Positions 1,131-57,449 of a stretch of 64,000 bases of DNA are shown here, piece after piece. The stretch is from NCBI GenBank assembly GCA_013265495.1, contig MU057487.1, positions 310,001 to 374,000 of the forward strand. The letters run 5' to 3'. The notes beneath the pieces are model-generated. The model saw only the letters and a program-made list of their open reading frames with translations. It did no database searches and was not told where the DNA came from. Source of the DNA: Vicugna vicugna. Its lineage: Eukaryota. Both the position numbers and the translations under genes were made by a program. Positions within the stretch are counted from its first letter, which is position 1. Each line of letters opens with the position of its first letter.

Positions 1131-2037
1131 TTTTTAAATTGAAGTATAATTAATTTATAATGTATTATTTTCTGGTACAGCATACTATGTACAGCATAAT
1201 GATTCAGTTGTACATATATACATATATTCCTTTTCATATTCTTTTTCATTATAGGCTATTACAAGGTATTAAAAATAGTTCCCTGTGCTATAGAGTAGGA
1301 CCTTGCTGATTATCTATTTTACATGTAGTGGTTAGTATGTGCAAATCCCAAACTCCCAATTTATCCCTCCCTACCTTCTTTCCCCTCTGGCAACCATAAG
1401 TTTGTTTTCTATGTCTGCAAGTCTGTTCCTGTTTTGTACATAAGTTCATGTCATTTTTTTTTAGATCCAAATATAAATAATATCATGTGGTGTTTTTCTT
1501 TCTTTTTCTGGCTTACTTCACTTAGTATGACAATCTCCAGGCCCATCTGTGTTGCTGCAAATAGCATTATTTTATTATTTTTATGGCTGAGTAGTATTCC
1601 ATTGTGTATATATTCCACGTCTCCTTTATCCAATCATCTGTTGATGGACATTTAGGTTGCTTCCATGTCTTGGCTATAGTAGATAGTGCTTCTATAAAGA
1701 TTGGGGTACATGTTATCTTTTCAAATTAGAGTTTCCTCTGAACATCTGCGAAGGAGTGGGATTGCTGGATCCTATGGGAAGTCTATTTTTAGATTTTAAG
1801 GAAACTCCATACTGTTTTCCATAATTGCTGCACCAGAATACATTCCCACCAACAGTATAGGAGGGTTCCATTTTCTCCACACCCTCTCGAGCATTTATTA
1901 TTTGTGGATTTTTAAATGATGACCATTTTGACCAATGCAAGTTGATACCTCATTGTAGTTTTGATTTGCATTTCTCTGATAATTAGCAATATTGAACATT
2001 TTTTCATATGCCTATTAACCATTTATATGCCTTTATT
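1131..2037 (-). mobile_element. 5'-truncated L1 (ORF2 C-terminus plus 3' UTR)
   Basis: Typical L1 ORF2 end ('gatacctcattgtagttttgatttgcatttctctgataattag', 'catctgttgatggacatttaggttgcttccatgtcttggct') and artiodactyl-type 3' UTR ending in a T-run; ORF 1451-1633 '...MLFAATQMGLEIVILSEVSQ'. Confidence 0.93.
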
Positions 2038-20320: not shown

Positions 20321-21506
20321 TTTTTTCTTTCTTTAGAATTTGTATTTTTATTAATTGAGGTATAGTCAGTGTACAATGTTGTGTCAATTTCTGGTGTATA
20401 ACACAATGCTTCAGTCATACATGAATATATATCATGAATATATATTCATTTTCATATTCTTTTTCACCATAAGCTACTACAGATACTGAATATATTTCCC
20501 TGTGCTATACAGTCTAAACTTGTTTATCTATTTTATGTATACCAGTCAGTATCTGCAAATCTCGAACTTCCAGTTTATCCCTTCCCACCCTCCGGCAACC
20601 ACAAGTCTGTATTCTATGTCTGTGAGTCTGTTTCTGTTTTATATACAAGTTCATTTGTCTTTTTTTTAGATTCCACATATTAGTGATAGCATATGATGTT
20701 TTTCTTACTTCACTTAGAATGATATTCTCCAGGGCCATCCATGTTGCTGCAAATGACATTATTTTATCATTTTTTATGGCCGAGTAGTATTCCCTAGTAT
20801 AAATAAACCACAACTTCTTTATTGACATCTGTCGGCGGACATTTAGGTTGTTCCCATGTCTTGGCTACTGTAAATAGTGCTGCTGTGAACACTGGGGTGC
20901 AGGTGTCTTTTTGAATTAAGGTTTCCTCTGAATATATGCCCAGGAGTGGGATTACTGGGTCATATGGTAACTCTATTGTTAGTCTTTGGAGGAATCTCCA
21001 TACTTTTTTCCACAATGGCTTCACCAAACTGCCTTCCCACCAACAGAATAGGAGGGTTCCCTTTTCTCCACACCCTCTCCAGCATTTATCATTTGTGGAC
21101 TTTTGAATGATGGTCATTTTGACTGATGTGAGGTGATACCTCACTGTAGTTTTATTTTGCATTTCTCTGATAATTAGTGATATTGAGCATCTTTTCATTT
21201 CATGTGCCTGTTGGTTATTCATATGTCTTTATTGGAGAATTGCTTGTTAGTTCTTCTACCCATTTTTGGATTGGGTTATTTGTTTTCTTCTTATTAAGTC
21301 GTATGAGCTGTTTCTATATTCTGGAAATCAAGCCCTTGTCAGTCTCATCTTTTGCAAATATTTTCTCCCATTCCGTAGGTTGTCATTTTGTCTTGCTCAT
21401 TGTTTCCTTTGCTATGCAAAAGCTTGTATTTAATTAGGTCCCATTTGTTTGTTTTTGCTTTTATTTCTATTGCTTGGGTAGGCTGCTCTAGGAGAACATT
21501 GCTGAG
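20321..21506 (-). mobile_element. 5'-truncated L1 (~1.2 kb) with degenerate 15-bp TSD
   Basis: ORF 20794-21222 is L1 ORF2 C-terminal domain ([16 protein letters not shown]...[14 protein letters not shown]); TSD ataagtgaattcctt (20306-20320) / ataaatgaattcttt (21507-21521). Confidence 0.95.

Positions 21507-37274: not shown

Positions 37275-37338
<64 letters not shown>
37275..37338. repeat. Perfect (CTAT)16 tetranucleotide STR
   Basis: Direct count of 16 uninterrupted units. Confidence 0.97.
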
Positions 37339-37339
<1 letters not shown>

Positions 37340-39739: not shown

Positions 39740-40797
39740 TCTTTTTATTTGACATGATTTTAGATGATCATATCATTATATAGAGAAGTACTATGTATCC
39801 TTTGCCTAGTCCCCAGTGATAACATCTTACATGACAATAGTATCATAACTAAGTAAAGAAACTGACGTTGGTACAATCCATAGATGTTGTTCAGATTTCA
39901 CCAGTTTTACATGCACTTTGTGTGTGTGTGTATAGTTCTGTGAAATTTGGTCACACGGGTGGATTTGTGTAACACCACCACCATCAACATATAGGACTGT
40001 TCATCATCATAAAGATCCCTCGTGCTACCCCTTTATAGCCACACCCATGCTCTTCACCTTCATCATCCCTGATCCCTGGTCCACTAGTCTATTGTACCTC
40101 TCTGTGATTTTGTCATTTTAAGAATGTTGTATCAGTAGAATCATACAGCATATGACCTTTTGATATTGGAGTTTTTTACCCATCATAGTGCTCTTGATAT
40201 TCATTCAAGTTGTTGTTTGTATCAAGAGTTTATTCCTTTTTATGGTTGATTGGTGGTCCATGGCCTAGATGTATACTTTGTTTAACTATTCCCCATTGAA
40301 GGACATTTGAGTTGTTTTCAGTTTTTGGATATTACAAATAAAGGTGCTGTGAACATTTGTGTGTATGGTTTTGTATGGACAAACTTTTAATTTTTCTAGG
40401 ATAAATACTCAGAAGTGCTTTGTTGTTGGGTCATATGTTAAGTATATGTTTAGATATTTTAAAAACTTGCCAAACCATTTTCTAAAGTGGCTGTACCCTT
40501 ATATATTCCTACCAGAAATGCGTGACTGATGCATTTTCTCTACATCTTCACCAGCATTTGATATTGTCATTATTTTTTAATTTTAGCTTTTCTGATAGAT
40601 ATGTAGTAATAACTCATGGAATTTTGATTTTTGTTTCCCTAAAGGCTAGTTTGAATATCTTTTCATGTGCTTATTTTTCATGAGTATGTCCTCTTCAGTA
40701 TAATGTCTCTTCATGTTTTTTGTCCATTTTCAAATTGGATTTTTTTTTTTACTGTTGAGTTTTGAGAGTTTTGAGTCCTTTGTCAGATATATTGTCA
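39740..40797 (-). mobile_element. Old L1 (L1MC-like) 3' region
   Basis: 'gataacatcttac...ctgacgttggtacaatccatag...ttcagatttcaccagttttacatgcac...ttgaaggacatttgagttgttttcagtttttgg'. Confidence 0.8.
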
Positions 40798-46199: not shown

Positions 46200-46497
46200 T
46201 GTTGTTGAATCCAAACTCATTCTGCTCCCCACATGACAGGCCAGTAAATTGGGAGACAAAGTGTCCGGGCAAGGAATAGTGACTTTATTCAGAAAGCCGG
46301 CAGACCAATGTCCTGGAGAACCATCCTGCTCCAGTCAGAATACAAGCTCCTTTTATACAAAAAAATAAGGGAAGGGGTGTGGTTGATTGTTGTAATCTTC
46401 TTGCTGCAGGCATTCTTTGTTCTTGCAGCCATCCCCATGGGCCAGGTCATGGTGTCCCTGTAAACCTCCGACAAAACAAAGGTTATTCTCTACTACA
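46200..46497 (-). mobile_element. 3' LTR (298 bp)
   Basis: TG...CA ends; TATAAAA at 46351-46357 (-), AATAAA at 46284-46289 (-); preceded on minus by the purine tract 'agtggggaat'. Confidence 0.95.
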
Positions 46498-47109
46498 ATT
46501 CCCCACTGTCAATGTCCATTCCACAATCTTCTGGGCGATGACCACTCTGGCTACTTCCTGCTGAAAAGGGGCAATGAGGGGGTGATTATGGAATGGAATT
46601 GATCAGCCTTGGTCAGGGACCATTCCTGGGAGTTTTAGTCAGTTGTATAATCTCTCTCTCTTTCTTTTTTTCCCCCCGACTGTACCATAATTACTGTAGA
46701 TTCTTGTGCTATTTAGTTCATCAGAAGACTTAGAATGCTGTCATGATGCCTCCAGGCGACCAGTTCTATAGAGGCTAATGGTTGTCACTGTTTCCATCTC
46801 TTTATCTTATAAGCACCCAAGGTGTGGTCTTCTTGGTAATTCAGGCTATTTTGTAAGGTTAAAGTCCTGTGACCTTCTCCCTGGAGATCGACTCAGAGAC
46901 CAAGCATGATTATAGCTTTTGATTATTGGAATAAAGTAGAAACAGTGAGATCAATAGCTTTAGTTTTAACAATGGGCCTGGAACTGTGAGTAGCAACCGA
47001 TCATTCAGGCCAGTTGACCATTTTAAGGGCAAGCATAAGAATAAGAAATCTGTTAGCCTAAGTGTAGCCATTTTATTAATCCTCCTTCCAAATCCCCATC
47101 AAGTTTCTC

Positions 47110-47535
47110 TCATTTCATTTCTATGGAAACAGGGAGATGGGCGTCGAGTTCCTGCTGAAGGGGGTGTTGTTTGGGGCCCTTGAAATGGAATGAGTAAACC
47201 TGATCTTGCCATGTGGCTGGGGGTTCAGAAAGAGCCTTAGATGCTTGTTTTCCGCACATTACACAATGGAAAACAGTCTAAATATTAGATATATACCAAC
47301 TCCTGTTAACAAAAGTGGTAACAGAAACTGTAGAATTCCCATAAGGGTGGATTTGAGACCTTGGGGTATCCATGAAAAGAGACCAGAAAACCAGGAGTTA
47401 ACTTGGGTTATAACTTTCCACTCATATGCATCTGAATCCCCTACATTTTGTATTTGTTGTTTCATGTCCTCCAGGGAAGTTGTGATGTTCCTGGATTTAT
47501 CTGGTATGAAAGTACAACAGGCAGAAACTCAATAA
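47110..47535 (-). pseudogene. env: env TM remnant B (CC of the CX6CC motif, membrane anchor, frameshifted tail)
   Basis: Translates SACCTFIPDKSRNITTSLEDMKQQIQNV...WFSGLFSWIPQGLKSTLMGILQFLLPLLLTGVGIYLIFRLFSIV, then in a shifted frame MCGKQ...HPLQQE. Confidence 0.8.
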
Positions 47536-47973
47536 CTACAAGAGAAGAACTTAAACCTATAAGGTTGTAGCTACAAGTTGCCAGCAGACACTGCTTTGAG
47601 ACTGGCTGGTGGCATTCTAATTTTGACACAACACAGAAAACTCAAGTACTCAGCAATACAGAAACTTGTCTGAAATCACATCTACATCGGTTACCTAATT
47701 TTACCTTGGATGTCTGAACTAAGTTATTCCATTTTGATTTTCAAATGCATTTTTTCTCCTTAATGGCCAAAGCAGAAGTTACCATTAATGATTTTAGTGC
47801 TTTTCTAGATATGAGGAGATGCAAGAATTTGGGCTCATAAAATCTTTTCCTGAAAATATCTAGCTGTCTGAAGGCCTGTTCAGACAGTTTTCCCAGAGCA
47901 CAGAGCACCTCATTCCTGATCTCCACCCTGAACACCATTCAGGGTGTGTTGGAGGTCAGCAGCAGCAGCAGCT

Positions 47974-48057
47974 CATGATTTAATCCAAGCAGAGGTAGAT
48001 GGCAAGTGCCAACATGATTCCACCCTTGTAGAGGTAGATGGCAAGTGCCTTCATGAT
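47974..48057. repeat. 39-bp tandem duplication inside the provirus
   Basis: 'catgat' recurs at 47974, 48013 and 48052; identical agaggtagatggcaagtgcc at 47991-48010 and 48030-48049. Confidence 0.9.
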
Positions 48058-48188
48058 CATAAATTTGACCATGGTTTGGCATGGCCATTTCATCCCACGG
48101 TGCTGGTGCTAGGAATGTGTATTCCTAGGTCAGGTGAGGATTTAATTGACAAGCCACTCAATGTGCTATTATGGGACTAGACCTTATT

Positions 48189-49059
48189 TTTTTTTATTGA
48201 TTTATAATCACTTTACAATGTTGTGTCAAATTCCAGTGTTCAGCACAGTTTTTCAGTCATACATAGACATATACACACTCATTGTCACATTTTTTTCTCT
48301 GTTAGTTACCATAACGTTTTGTGTAAATTTCCCTGTGCTATACAGTATAATCTTGTTTATCTATTCTACAATTTTGAAATCCCAGTCTATCCCTTCCCAC
48401 CCTCTACCCCCCTGGTAACCACAAGTCTGTATTCTCTGTCCATGAGTCTATTTCTGTCCTGTATTTATGCTTTGTTTTTGTTTGTTTTTTTGTTTTTTAG
48501 ATTCCACATATGAGCGATCTCATATGGTATTTTTCTTTCTCTTTCTGGCTTACTTCACTTAGAATGACATTCTCCAGGAGCATCCATGTTGCTGCAAATG
48601 GCATTATGTTGTCGGTTTTTATGGCTGAGTAGTATTCCATTGTATAAATATACCACTTCTTCTTTATCCAGTCACCTGTTGATGGACATTTAGGCTGTTT
48701 CCATGTTTTGACTATTGTACATAGTGCTGCTATGAACATTGGGGTGCAGGTGTCATCCTGAAGTAGGGTTCCTTCTGGATACAAGCCCAGGAGTGGGATT
48801 CCTGGGTCATACGGTAAGTCTATTCCTAGTCTTTTGAGGAATCTCCACACTTTTCCATAGTGGCTGCACCAAACTGCATTCCCACCAGCAGTGTAGGAGG
48901 GTTCCCCTTTCTCCACAGCCTCTCCAGCATTTGTCATTTGTGGATTTTTGAATGATGGCCATTCTCACTGGTGTGATACCTCATTGTAGTTTTGATTTGC
49001 ATTTCTCTAATAATTAGTGATATTGAGCATTTTTTCATGTGCCTTTTGATCATTTGTAT
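48189..49059 (-). mobile_element. Young 5'-truncated L1 nested in the ERV, 15-bp perfect TSD
   Basis: ORF 48497-48937 is the ORF2 C-terminus; TSD ggactagaccttatt at 48174-48188 and 49060-49074; endonuclease site TT/AATA on minus. Confidence 0.97.
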
Positions 49060-49189
49060 GGACTAGACCTTATTAACGGTAGCAAAAATGTCTCTGGACC
49101 ACCTGTCTTACTAGCCTGTTATGATTCAGGAAAATATTCCCTCTTGTTGGTTCTTCCCATATGTAGAGTCACACTATTACAATCATTGG

Positions 49190-49376
49190 TCTCATACAGA
49201 AGTATATATCTGGTCTACTCTTTCAAGTTGCCTAGTCATTATTTTATTAGAGGCTCAGTCACATATTTGGTAATGCAAGAAACAACAATTTTGTAAAACA
49301 GGCAAAATACAAATAATATAGTTAGTAGTATTAGTAAGGTCATAAGTTAGAATTTAAGCCAAGAACTTTCATTAGG
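49190..49376 (-). pseudogene. env: env TM remnant A (membrane anchor plus tail)
   Basis: Translates PNESSWLKF*LMTLLILLTILFVFCLFYKIVVSCITKYVTEPLIK, then in a shifted frame IMTRQLERVDQIY. Confidence 0.55.
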
Positions 49377-51599
49377 TGCAGTTCAGTGTATCCCCAGGTC
49401 TTCTGACTTAGTCTGTTTTGTACCAATCCTTATCCTTAAGGAAAATGTTATACAGGCATTGTTCATAAGCAAAGATATGAGACAAAACCAAAAATTATAA
49501 TCATATTTATCAGTGTACTCAGTCCCATGTAACTAATCCTTTTTGTTAACAGGTTTATGAAATCAGAGTTTCCATCAGACTTTTAAAATTTCTTACCCAG
49601 TTTAGTTCAGTGCTATAGTTTGAAATTTATTAGGAACCAGTAAATCTCCTTGAAGAGAAAGCATTTTGCAAAAGCATCAGAATAAAACAATAATTGTCTA
49701 TAAATGGCAAAAGACTTAAAAGCATGGTTAAGCACCTAGTTACACTGTAATCGATAAAGAGACCTGGTCACAATAACCAGAATTATGACTGGTAACATTT
49801 CAGACATATCAGATTTTTAGTGATTTCATATAGTTTCTAGAATATCTATATTAATAATATTTTTTCAGACAATATAACCTAGGAAGATTTATTATTCATT
49901 TGACAATACTTCCCATGTTATTTAACATACCAAATGAAACTTACTAGTTTGAAACCTCTCTTTGGGATGTTTCAGGGGCCCTCTGAAGCATCCCAGATTT
50001 AGCTGGAGGTCAAAAGAATTCTGATTAAAATTTGATATTTGGGAAGCTTGTTAAAAAGTTTCAAAACACTTAGTCAGATAAAAATATAGGTTACTGTGAA
50101 ACAGTACTTACTCATTAACAATAAAAATATTTCAAGGGTAAATACAGAACTGATTACTTATGGGGTAAAAGAAACTTTACAATCTGTTACTAAAAGCAGA
50201 TTAGCATTTTAAGATAACTTTGTTCTCTCAACAGAGAGAAAGAGAACCAAATCTAGTCATCTTGTACCAGCTTACTTTTAAGATTTATTTAATCAACTAA
50301 ATTTATTTTAAACTTAGCCAATCCAGACCACGTACAAAATTCTTCTCTCAGAATTTCTCTTTCACAAACCTACGATTTTCTCTATCTATATTATTTTGTC
50401 CCTTGTTTTCTTTTCCATTCAGGAGCAACCAGCTTTAGGAAAAAGTCACTCTTTTTCCATTAACAAAATAAAACTCCATTTCTTATACCTTCTTTCACTG
50501 AAAACATTCGTCTTATTTTCCTAGCACACTGAGATATTTCCCTTAGTAGTAGAGACTATTTCAGGGTGGCACCAAACATTTATTAATATTTATTTCTAAA
50601 TATCTTTAGTTTCTCTGTAAGAGAAAGTCAATATTCAGCAAATAATGTTTCAATATCTTATTTTATCTGAAAATGACCCAGCTATTTAATAAATTTCCAT
50701 CATTTAACTTAATTTAGCACAACTCTAAAATTTTAATTAACCAAATATCTGGGGATATCATTTGAGTAGACATTTTTGAAATAATCATTCCTAGACAGTT
50801 TACCCAAAAGCTCTTTCTCACTTGCATTTAAGTTACTTACAAGAATATTATACTAAGTTGTTTCTCTTGCTGACAGATTTGTAACAGATATGACAAGGTC
50901 TTGTTGGACTTCTATTAAACCTAAGTACAACAGAAGTTTTATGCTTAACATTAATGAATCTTGAGACATGTCTATATTAATTAAGCCAATACGCTTAAGC
51001 TAGCTTTAATTACCCAATATCGATTCAGTACTGGATTTTTTTTTTAGATCACATGAAACTGATTTTCATTCTGGCCAGTTTCTTTTTTATTTCTGAGTAC
51101 TTATATAAGCATTTAATTTTCTTTAAGCCAATTAAATAGAACTCTTTTATAGATTAATTTTGGCAATGCCACATATCTACAACACACATATGTGTACGTA
51201 CAAACATACAAACACAGAGACCTCATAGTTCCCATTTTAAACTTTTAGCTGTGAATCAGATACAACAATGTAAGACTCATCAGTTACAAGAGGTTGGGTT
51301 CAAATTGGGTTTTTGGCAGATAGACCAAATCAAAGTTGCCTGACTAGATAGCTAAACGTAACTTCTATGGAAGACATTTAAGATTTCTATTTGTTTCCAA
51401 ATTACTCCCTTTTTCAAAATCTGCATTCCAGAGGTCATAGCAGCAGTTGAGGCATTGGTACTGGACAGAAGTTAGAAGTTACAGAGTCCACTAGTTGAGA
51501 CCCTGCTGTCAGTTGTACCTAAGGCTCTTGAGTGCCAGTTGTTATAGGGGTCTTTAAAATGGCTTAGAGCCCTGGACCCTGACAGCCATTACCTTCCTC

Positions 51600-51859
51600 A
51601 TTATGGGATTTCATAAAGGTTTATATATATATAGTATTTCTTCCTATTTAACTTTTCTCTGGCAAAACAGTTCTAGCTGGAGAATGGCTTAGTAATTTCC
51701 AGGCCGGTGTTCCCCAGAGCCTAAAGTGTACACTACTCATGCAGTATTACAGTAAAATACCATCCTTTTCTCAGTCACAGGCTCACAGCTATATTTTCCC
51801 CATTTATTTAAGATACGCCCCAAAGGGCTTTCCTTAGGGATAGATGGAGTACTTCCCAT
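51600..51859 (-). pseudogene. gag: gag matrix (MA) remnant
   Basis: MGSTPSIPKESPLGRILNKWGKY...KRMVFYCNTA*VVYTLGSGEHRP...AILQLELFCQRKVK*EEILYI, resembling the HERV-H/W/9-type MA (FCNTAWPQY...ILQLDLFC). Confidence 0.85.
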
Positions 51860-52466
51860 ATCTTTAAGTTTAAGAACAATAAGACACAAAAGGTGCAAAC
51901 AAACCCCGAGACCAAAAACACAAAGTATGACATGACTAAACACAACACTGGAGCCATCGTTCCCTTAGGCGTGGGTTCATAGCTGTATGCAATCAGACCA
52001 CTTATTCAAAACTGCCTCAAAGAACCTTCTTTAGGGATAGTTGAAGCGTTCCCTATATTTTTTTCTTTTTTAAGACAGGAATGCAAGACAAGCAAAACAC
52101 AAACGATGCACACAAATGCTAGCATCCAAAGAAACAAATGAACCAGTTTGCAAATCGGGTAGAAGTCCAACAACTATTTCACCAACAGGGTACCCCACCT
52201 AAAACAAATTGGCTTATTCCAGAGAAAAAGCCCTAATGGAGAGGAATAAAGTTCCTGGCTGTACACACCAGAGCGACTTGCCCTACTACATGGAGCCCGT
52301 TGGCCCCCAAATGTCGATTCCTTGCTCCAACTAACAAGTGCTGGGGCAGCTGGTGCCGCTTCAGGGAATTTTGAGGGGAAGATCCTCAGGACAGGTGGTC
52401 CTGGCAGCTGGAAGGGCCTCACCTGAGAATTCCCCAAACGGGATCGGCTGGCCACGAGCAGCAAGG

Positions 52467-52489: not shown

Positions 52490-52803
52490 TGTTGCTGAGT
52501 CCAAACTCGTTCTGCTCCCCGCTCGACAGGCCAATAAATCAGGAGATGAGGTGTTGGGGCAAGGAAGAGCGACTTTATTTGGAAAGCCAGCGGACGGAGA
52601 GGATGACAGACTAATGTCTTGGAGAACCATCCTGCTCTAGTCAGAATACAGGCTCCTTTTATACAAAAAAATAAGGGAGGGGGTGTGGTTGACTGTTGCA
52701 ATCTTCTTGCTGCAGGCATTCTTTGTTCTTGCAGCCATACCTGTGGGCCAGGTCATGGTGTCCCTGTAAACCTCCAGCAAAACAAAGGTTATTCTCTACT
52801 ATA
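52490..52803 (-). mobile_element. 5' LTR (314 bp)
   Basis: Aligns to 46200-46497 (about 33 mismatches by hand count plus a 16-bp indel); TATAAAA 52657-52663 (-), AATAAA 52574-52579 (-). Confidence 0.95.
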
Positions 52804-52979
52804 CTCCCTTGTGAAAGTGTAGGTGGAGAAGCAGAGGGTGCCTTCCTGAGAAGTAGAGCTCTCTCTCCACTGTGGAAATGTGAGGAGTCAGGGGTGGGTA
52901 AGTGCCCTGCCTAACTTTATGATAATGTACATACAAAAGGCTCTTCATAGCTGATGAAATGCTTAGCTCTGTTTAGGAT

Positions 52980-55290: not shown

Positions 55291-55399
55291 TCTTTTTTTC
55301 CCTCTCTCTCTCTTTTTTTTAATAGAGGTACTGGGGATTGAACCCAGGACCTCATGAATGCTAAGTACACACTCTACCGCTGAGCTATACCCTCCCCTT
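55291..55399 (-). mobile_element. tRNA-Ala-derived SINE (short vic-1-type copy)
   Basis: Minus strand 'ggggagggtatagctcagcggtagagtgtgtacttagcattcatgaggtcctgggttcaatccccagtacctc' plus A-rich tail. Confidence 0.9.
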
Positions 55400-56492
55400 C
55401 ATATACATTCATATCTATGTTAATTTTTCCTACTTTAATGATAAAGAAATACATATTAAAGCTGTATTAAGAAATCTCAGTGTTCATGTCCTATTAGGCC
55501 TCCTAAAACATAGAATAAAAATGAGTCTGAAAGTAAGTAAAATTTTACAGAATTTTATTTTACAAAATTTAATATGTTAATTGTGCTTATAAAAACCAAA
55601 CCAAAACCCCCCAAACTTTTCCAGTATTGATGGTCTCATGCCTTTTTTTGGATACGGATACATCTTGAATACATAAAGATAAAACCAGAGATAAAGAAGT
55701 CTTTAACAGAAAAGTCAACTGTAAACCTTATTGTTGGGATTAAACACAATGAATTCCAGGTCTCTACAAACAGGAGAAAGTGAAAGGAATACTCAAACTA
55801 TACAGGCAGTTTGAGTGCTGGGAATAGTAAATCTAAGGTGACTGTCTCTTTTCCTGATCTGAGGATACTACTCCTTCCAGTTAACTAGTGGCCAGCAGTC
55901 CTGGTCAGGCGCATACTTTATTCTGGTAGTTACTACATTCAAATAAACCTGAGGCCTTACAATTCTTTTTTTTAAACTTGTATCATTGTCATTACTATTC
56001 TGTAGGTTCCTGGAATCAAGAGCAATATTAACTTATCTTCATGTGACAGTTACAGGACATATTACTATATTTTCTTTACTATATTAATCATTTCATAAGT
56101 TTGGTAACACCAAGATGTCTGCATTTCAAACAAGTTTTATAATCATTTCATTGTTAATGGAATGATGTCAAATATTAAAAATACTTATTCTAAATTGCAT
56201 GTACTCAAGGATAGCAAAGACTTGGACACTCATTTTAAACTATAATTGCACTAGAATAGGATAATAATCTCATTGAGATATGTCATTGAGGATCTAGTAT
56301 AGGCTCATGACTGAACTCTCAAATCTCAGAAGATGCTCTAAGAATCAAGTATTAGTTTAAAAAGGGGGCTCAGGGCGGTGATTGTGTAAAAATAAAAAGG
56401 ATGGCATCTCATATGAGCTGCCATTAGACAATTCCTCTAATGAGCAGAAGGTAAAGTTTTCTTGCTAATCAAAATTAAATTAAAAGCTACTA

Positions 56493-57449
56493 TGGTGTAA
56501 ATATACCACAACTTCTTTATCTAGTCATCTGTTGATGGACATTTAGGTTTCTTCCATGTCTTGGCTATTGTAAATAGAGCTGCTATGAACATTGAGGTGC
56601 ATGTATCTTTTTGAATTAGAGTTCCCTCTGGATATATGCCCAGGATTAGGATTGCTGGATCATATGGTAAGTCTATTTTTAGTTTTTCGAGGAATCTCCA
56701 TACTTTTTTCCACAATGGCTACACCAAACTACATTCCCATCAACAGTGTAGTAGGGTTCCCTTTTCTCCACAGCCTCTCCAGCATTTGTCTTTTGTGGAC
56801 TTTTGAATGATGGCCATTCTGACTGGTGTGAGGTGATACCTCATTGTAGTTTTGATTTGCATTTCTCTGATAATTAGCGGTATTGAGTATTTTTTCATGA
56901 CAGATGACTGAATAAAGAAGTTGTGATACGTTTACACAATGGAATACTACTCAGTGATAAAAAATAATAAAATAATGCCATTCGCAGCAACATGGAGGGA
57001 ACTGGAGATCATCATTTTGAGTGAAGTAAGCCAGAAAGAGAAAGAAAAATACCATATGATATCACTCATATGTGGAATCTAAGGAAAAAAAAGAAAGAAA
57101 AAAAAAAGAGGACACTAATAAACTCATCTACAAAATAGAAACGGACTTGCAGACATGATAAACAATCCTATGTTTACCAGAGAATAGGGGGTGGGAATGA
57201 ATAAATCTGGGAGTTTGAGGTTTGCTAATGTTAACCACTATATATAAAAATAGATTAAAACCCCCCAAATTTCTTCTATATAGCACAGAGAACTATATTC
57301 AATATCTTGTAATAACCTTTAATGAAAAAGAATATGAAAATGAATATATGTATATATATATATATGCATGACTGGAACATTATGCTGTACACCATAAATT
57401 GACACATTGTAACTGACTATACTTAAAACAAAACAAGACAAAACAAAAA
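56493..57449 (+). mobile_element. L1 with 5' inversion (inverted 56493-56899, sense 56900-57449)
   Basis: Antisense ORF2 segment joined directly to a sense segment running through the 3' UTR to an A-rich tail. Confidence 0.92.

Follow-up and report, generated by a model that had tools for sequence, protein, structure and literature searches.

An old class I provirus of Vicugna vicugna with stacked 3′ ends, apparently a mosaic of at least two retroviral lineages

The window analyzed here, a DNA stretch of 64 kb, carries on its minus strand a class I provirus of 6.6 kb (52803-46200), flanked by two LTRs of about 300 bp. The provirus is an old, non-coding ERV1 relic. Sequence comparisons support a mosaic of at least two lineages, because its two tails, the env remnant B and the probable env remnant A, are unrelated and because tail A, together with the block that follows it, has an independent homolog lacking tail B. 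The original prediction had described a recombinant provirus with a series of env ends; its mosaic character stands, but the parsing had to be revised, as an L1 insertion had been missed, tail A and the block form one unit, and the junction lies between the block and tail B. The features are given below in the 5′ to 3′ order of the provirus.

52804..52807, minus: candidate 5′ TSD, 4 bp, matching the 3′ copy (46199-46196) at 3/4 positions
52490..52803, minus: 5′ LTR, 314 bp, TA..CA ends, one TATAAA and one AATAAA
52467..52485, minus: PBS of Arg(ACG)/Trp type, 16/18 plus one inserted base against the listed R(ACG) PBS, by eye
51954..52138, minus: first gag-start-like copy, frame broken, 62% identical to the second over 186 columns
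51611..51924, minus: second gag-start-like copy, a matrix-like stub interrupted by stops, with its ATG at 51859
49460..51450, minus: AT-rich non-coding interior, about 30% GC, 2 kb, without pol motifs
49195..49451, minus: tail A, probable env remnant; short SU-like piece, membrane span and cytoplasmic tail, with stops and a frame change
49075..49194, minus: stretch between tail A and the upstream L1 TSD, including a weak purine run (49148-49137); in the homolog L016 it runs on into the block
49060..49074, minus: L1 TSD, upstream copy, 15 bp
48189..49059, minus: secondary L1 3′ fragment in provirus orientation; ORF2 end, 3′ UTR, AATAAA, A-tail
48174..48188, minus: L1 TSD, downstream copy, 15/15 identical to the upstream copy
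47765..48173, minus: 'U3-like' block, 71% to L016 (E 1e-62); LTR origin presumed
47974..48057, minus: 39-bp tandem duplication, 2.2 copies, 82%; single unit in L016
47545..47765, minus: junction zone between the end of the L016 homology (about 47780-47765) and the start of homology to tail B relatives (47543); 220 nt, unassigned
47259..47543, minus: tail B, remnant of a gamma-type env TM, comprising a CX6CC motif interrupted by one stop, the HR2 region and a membrane span
47149..47158, minus: env-end 10-mer TCAGCAGGAA, first copy, 100 nt past the tail B stop
46600..47140, minus: 540-nt segment between the motif copies, without env profile match
46555..46564, minus: env-end 10-mer TCAGCAGGAA, second copy, preceding the PPT
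46498..46510, minus: polypurine tract before the 3′ LTR, read directly from the sequence
46200..46497, minus: 3′ LTR, 298 bp, TG..CA ends, one TATAAA and one AATAAA

The provirus displays the features of a gamma-like class I element, with paired LTRs, a 4-bp TSD (3/4), a PBS, a PPT and a TM of the CX6CC type (tail B). The PPT and 3′ LTR that had been predicted are in place, and a matching 5′ LTR accompanies them. The two LTRs are identical at 266 of 298 aligned columns (89%; K2P 0.119-0.123, or 0.096 when CpG columns are left out). The terminal LTR may be MER41-like. A motif scan of this LTR detected no GAS (STAT1) motif; in the accessible part of PMC9435751 the motif is present in 1071/5491 MER41_BT copies, about a fifth, and is hence not obligatory. 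A 15-mer from the terminal LTR had no match in 11 of the 16 supplement files of the same paper, and a 30-mer gave 0 matches in a metagenome scan. For the PBS, the reference was the R(ACG) row in the available Table S6 of PMC4724089, and the comparison was made by eye. At the camel rate stated in the accessible text of PMC8605555 (2.5e-8 per generation, with a generation of 5 years), the divergence of the LTR pair corresponds to an age of ~10-12 million years, while assumed rates of 1.5-3e-9 per year give 20-41 million years. Depending on the rate, integration would have taken place about 10-40 million years ago.

At the 5′ end, two gag-start-like copies stand in tandem (52138-51760). They align with an E value of 1e-7, and 0/300 shuffles reached the score. 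These two stubs are putative gag starts; a Pfam search of the stub gave no match, and a search of the gag start in the Atlas returned nothing above 0.77. Comparison of the stub as a single sequence with the PDB matched designed TPR proteins, and this was judged to be chance. The doubled gag start mirrors, on the 5′ side, the stacking of the 3′ ends. Among 6 candidates, one relative of the second gag start was found (P0005; 72% over 36 aa), which matches the window at 51859-51752 and also both LTRs (E 1e-7 to each). P0005 joins the same gag start almost directly to sequence of this LTR family and is apparently a far shorter, deleted relative.

Downstream of the gag stubs, a scan of the interior in its three minus frames revealed neither RT nor protease nor zinc-knuckle motifs. 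The longest minus-strand frames inside the provirus are 155 aa (within the L1), 104 aa and 89 aa (within tail B). With pol motifs absent and frames no longer than these, the non-autonomous status that had been proposed for the element was borne out. The evidence supports that the provirus could not supply its own enzymes, although its present state without pol cannot prove its state at integration. Outside the L1, the interior contains 10 AATAAA hexamers; it is therefore not visibly purged of polyadenylation signals, which counts against the recombinant account favored below.

The L1 fragment of 871 bp lies between tail A and the block and was missing from the earlier description. It shows the signs of target-primed reverse transcription, namely 5′ truncation, an A-tail and a 15/15 TSD, and it is absent from L016. 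Since the L1 sits between tail A and the block, conserved A-block sequence is found on both of its sides. By these hallmarks, the L1 is a later insertion into the already integrated provirus. With its perfect 15-bp TSD, it constitutes a datable secondary event. The fragment is 65-86% identical (76-86% in another comparison) to four other L1 3′ fragments of the window (1173-2029, 20340-21228, 40237-40688 and 56492-57442), the last of which consists of two parts in opposite orientation. The window as a whole has 29-48% GC, L1 fragments and no long frames; it also contains a (CTAT)16 microsatellite (37275-37339) and, at 2360-2424 and 55314-55378, a SINE-like repeat that presumably belongs to the camelid Vic-1 family.

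Of the two tails, B is the clearer. Its stop-free frame spans 89 aa (47528-47259), and the CX6CC motif before this frame has one stop inside. An exhaustive search of 1.84 billion proteins yielded 11 relatives at E<=1e-3, and two of these exceed the TLV_coat cut-off, at 28.5 and 58.5 bits, whereas tail B alone reaches 11.3 bits, below the cut-off of 22.5. The profile built from tail B and its relatives had its best PDB matches in syncytin-2 (E 8.9e-9) and syncytin-1. As a single sequence, tail B gave 2 PDB matches at E ~1.8, to the CX6CC region of filovirus GP2, which are not significant. In a word-indexed search among longer proteins, 0/75 candidates were relatives. The homology does not reach upstream of 47543, and the ISD was not recovered. 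The predicted env TM tail at this position is confirmed by the CX6CC motif, the 11 relatives and the syncytin-2 profile match, and by homology tail B is a gamma-type env TM remnant.

Two copies of an env-end motif had also been predicted. The 10-mer TCAGCAGGAA indeed occurs at 47158 and 46564, exactly two occurrences in 64 kb, both on the minus strand. With an expectation of 0.085 copies per window, a repeat within 700 nt would arise by chance with a probability of ~6e-4, so the doubling goes beyond chance. We assume that TCAGCAGGAA is a class I env-end motif; syncytin-1 env reportedly ends in such a motif (SAGSS* in the original prediction). Neither the frames nor Pfam nor the tail B profile pointed to a further env tail in the segment that separates the motif copies. 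In viral contigs the motif gave 13 loci, all chance, with similarity limited to the seed. Among the scans of other collections, prokaryote genomes gave 1 chance locus, and plasmids and phages gave no match.

Tail A is more degraded. A hydrophobic span and a cytoplasmic-tail-like frame could be followed over ~49451-49195, with no CX6CC beside the span. The env TM tail predicted here is present in so far as span and tail-like frame exist, but Pfam gave no match for tail A or for its relative P0019. In the Atlas, the top entries for tail A are viral envelope glycoproteins (0.84), below the bar, and this serves as a lead only. Five further spans besides tail A passed the hydropathy cut, one of them being tail B. 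Among 7 candidates, one was a relative of tail A (P0019; 72%, E 3e-10). Aligned to 49451-49195, it shows 64% over 70 aa (E 5e-23); its frame is open for 135 aa and keeps the membrane span and the tail. File 4 of PMC4724089 prints a MER41a env putein, and visual comparison shows a likeness between its SU end and the N-terminal portion of P0019. P0019 seems to fuse an env SU piece straight to a membrane anchor, without a TM ectodomain. L016 preserves the frame of tail A as well (46% over 48 aa, E 5e-8). Tail A is, on these comparisons, a probable internally deleted env remnant. The two tails had been called unrelated, and this view holds: BLASTP produced no alignment between them, 130/300 shuffles reached the score of the DNA comparison, and tail A scored 2.5 bits on the profile of the tail B family.

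The block following tail A had been predicted to be LTR-U3-like with a 39-bp tandem repeat. The block and its repeat (31/39 matches between units in our own register) were found where expected, at 47974-48057 with 2.2 copies at 82%, but a U3 identity did not gain support: the sequence scan of the block detected no TATAAA, AATAAA or TG start, and the block is unrelated to the terminal LTR (194/300 shuffles reach the score). A purine-run scan, unspecific in that 15 runs in the interior passed its cut, revealed no PPT-grade run after tail A or before the block. As the original prediction suggested, the block may resemble the U3 of a cetartiodactyl LTR. The U3 of PERV carries a 39-bp repeat; in the present provirus the duplication looks local, since it is absent from L016. 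The block had no Pfam match, and its 17-mer in viral contigs gave 3 loci, all chance, with similarity limited to the seed. Self-comparison of the 64-kb window detected neither a second copy of the block nor an inner TSD.

A metagenome scan with a 20-mer from the block returned 3 loci, 2 of them chance and 1 a true homolog, L016. This locus (940-218, minus) contains tail A and the block colinearly, without the L1 and without tail B. Similarity amounts to 69% for tail A (E 1e-43) and 71% for the block (E 1e-62), and the divergence is even (K2P 0.25 and 0.275 for tail A and block, respectively). We take L016 to be a host contig of ruminant type, as a presumed BovB/RTE-like element lies upstream; the window itself gave no BovB-like match to L016. 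Since L016 has both parts colinearly with even divergence, tail A and the block are, as judged from this alignment, one old unit common to the provirus and the ruminant-type contig. The similarity stops near 47780-47765 of the window. The next 217 nt of L016 had no match to tail B, the LTR or the interior (13/300, 90/300 and 9/100 shuffles reached the scores) and contained no AATAAA and no R/U5 signs. Elsewhere in the window these last 217 nt had no match either. A weak hydrophobic frame was seen in them, and a candidate env tail after the block scored 4.2 bits, which is not significant, and was rejected. From the two alignment ends, the real junction of the provirus is that of block to B, near 47765. 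A second copy of this junction was found in none of the 20 fetched loci, of which the sole true homolog, L016, lacks tail B. Of the several lineages predicted, at least two are retained, while A and the block count as one donor unit and no third env tail was found.

The account that we favor, and hold to be probable, is a non-autonomous recombinant, MER4I-group/MER41-like and built like HARLEQUIN, which would have formed by template switching before integration and received the L1 later. All segments of the provirus have the same orientation and the same LTR type stands at both ends; this orientation, with no inner LTR pair or TSD left in the window, supports recombination before integration. 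The element would have retained LTRs, Arg-type PBS, leader and PPT as cis signals and depended on a helper virus for every protein. Non-homologous template switching among co-packaged RNAs would have put its interior together. One donor may have contributed the end of the AT-rich interior, tail A as a deleted env remnant, and what follows tail A up to a cut near 47765, and a second donor the TM remnant B along with the env-end motif that closes it; the backbone that bears the LTRs would account for the final 0.6 kb, the second motif and the PPT. The L1 fragment would then have entered the donor-1 segment after integration. Template switching is, by analogy, a plausible cause of the mosaic, which would have used a helper and may have spread as a family.

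The same order of segments could have arisen at a single locus, if an older MER41-like element (from the first gag start to B, the motifs and the LTR) had received another defective provirus, made up of the second gag start, the AT-rich interior, A and the block, and later deletions had taken the inner 5′ LTR and the end of the inner 3′ LTR, so that the mosaic was never mobile as a unit. We regard this as unlikely. The doubled gag start and the A-block fit a nested insertion followed by deletions equally well, which counts against the favored account; tandem gag starts and the free-standing A plus block of L016 are the pattern of an inner element, the locus has already taken one secondary insertion, the L1, and according to PMC4724089 mosaics are known to arise through secondary integration as well. 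Yet two further deletions are needed, each removing an LTR end, and self-comparisons of the window revealed no inner 5′ LTR remnant or inner TSD. Moreover, the L016 homology ends exactly where the provirus changes segment, with no AATAAA in the next 217 nt of L016, and nesting leaves the doubled env-end motif unexplained.

Another possibility is that B is the only env end, tail A being a hydrophobic frame in AT-rich DNA and the block ordinary interior or untranslated sequence of a plain deleted ERV1. The absence of Pfam matches for tail A, P0019 and the block is in keeping with this, as are the lack of a PPT-grade run, TG start, TATAAA and AATAAA in the block and the fact that T-rich DNA gives hydrophobic frames, with 5 other spans passing the cut, one of them B. 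What makes it quite improbable in our opinion is that P0019 is open for 135 aa over the same frame with span and tail kept, that this frame is also readable in L016 (46% over 48 aa, E 5e-8), that P0019 resembles by eye the MER41 env putein in the available file of PMC4724089, and that the env-end 10-mer occurs twice, which exceeds chance expectation. An assembly chimera of reads from different ERV copies is highly improbable. The LTR pair, its TSD and the perfect TSD of the L1 are coherent, and old, diverged segments assemble uniquely. Of 22 listed sequencing runs (9 studies, two organisms), 20 contain more than half of the sampled words of the surrounding 8-kb stretch; the fraction is only 0.51-0.59, which leaves some room for a chimera, and the words attest presence only, the junctions not being covered.

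Returning to the favored recombinant, one extension of it would treat A plus block as a reusable 3′-end cassette, cut at one fixed point near 47765, ahead of any poly(A) signal, and joined to varying downstream partners in non-autonomous ERVs of camelids and ruminants. We consider it a long shot, suggested by the one homolog, L016, in which the similarity breaks off at this point and unrelated sequence follows. If the cassette were true, stacking of 3′ ends and gag starts would be a selected way for defective ERVs to gather cis signals for export, packaging or enhancer function from more than one helper lineage. Recurrence of the cut point across many copies and species would point to a hot spot of recombination or to selection for a cis cassette, and the question of what non-autonomous ERVs keep, and why, would become testable. 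For repeat annotation, the segment boundaries, the hidden L1 and the shared camelid-ruminant module are of use. The provirus serves as one cetartiodactyl example of the patchwork, helper-dependent class I ERVs.

The terminal LTR may resemble the MER41*_Vpa families, for which the published table gives counts, not sequences, and no account of the interiors. The original prediction had suggested that a little-described camelid family may be represented; six camelid LTR families to which the LTR may belong (MER41_Vpa, B, C, C1, C2 and D) are already in the Repbase RepeatMasker library, with 978-2718 extracted copies each in alpaca (the available Table S13 of PMC9435751). Short, ORF-less ERV1 clusters of alpaca are thought to be non-autonomous; in the accessible text of PMC8605555 they are described in bulk, without segment maps, and they resemble the provirus in being camelid ERV1 with no coding domains.

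The MER4I group and MER41 resemble the provirus in being class I with a 4-bp TSD, an Arg/Trp PBS and a defective, patchy interior (accessible parts of PMC4724089 and PMC11905727). ERV-MER41E, for instance, is non-autonomous and has only 108 bp in common with MER41-int (PMC11905727, as far as available). They differ in that the LTR of the provirus is short (~300 bp) and has no GAS motif, and the available parts of these sources describe no serial env tails. No description of env tails in series was found in the openly searchable literature on mosaic ERVs; repeat-library notes would be the likeliest place for one. Patchwork relics are a known kind, and the layout of the provirus itself may be undescribed.

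In the accessible text of PMC4724089, 1959/3173 human ERV chains are noncanonical, some recombinants having gone on to spread, and the cause proposed there is template switching; mosaics of the HARLEQUIN type were re-integrated. The structure of HARLEQUIN is given as LTR2-HERVE-MER57I-LTR8-MER4I-HERVI-HERVE-LTR2 (PMC5753468, available part). Like the provirus, HARLEQUIN is class I, has several ERV1 pieces inside LTRs of the same type and is nearly without gag/pol products. It also contains an internal foreign LTR8 after its MER57I segment; in the provirus, the LTR origin of the corresponding block is putative. HARLEQUIN differs in comprising 68 chains, mostly with recognisable env, whereas the provirus is known from one locus and has remnants of TM ends only. 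The likeness drawn between the two is one of layout.
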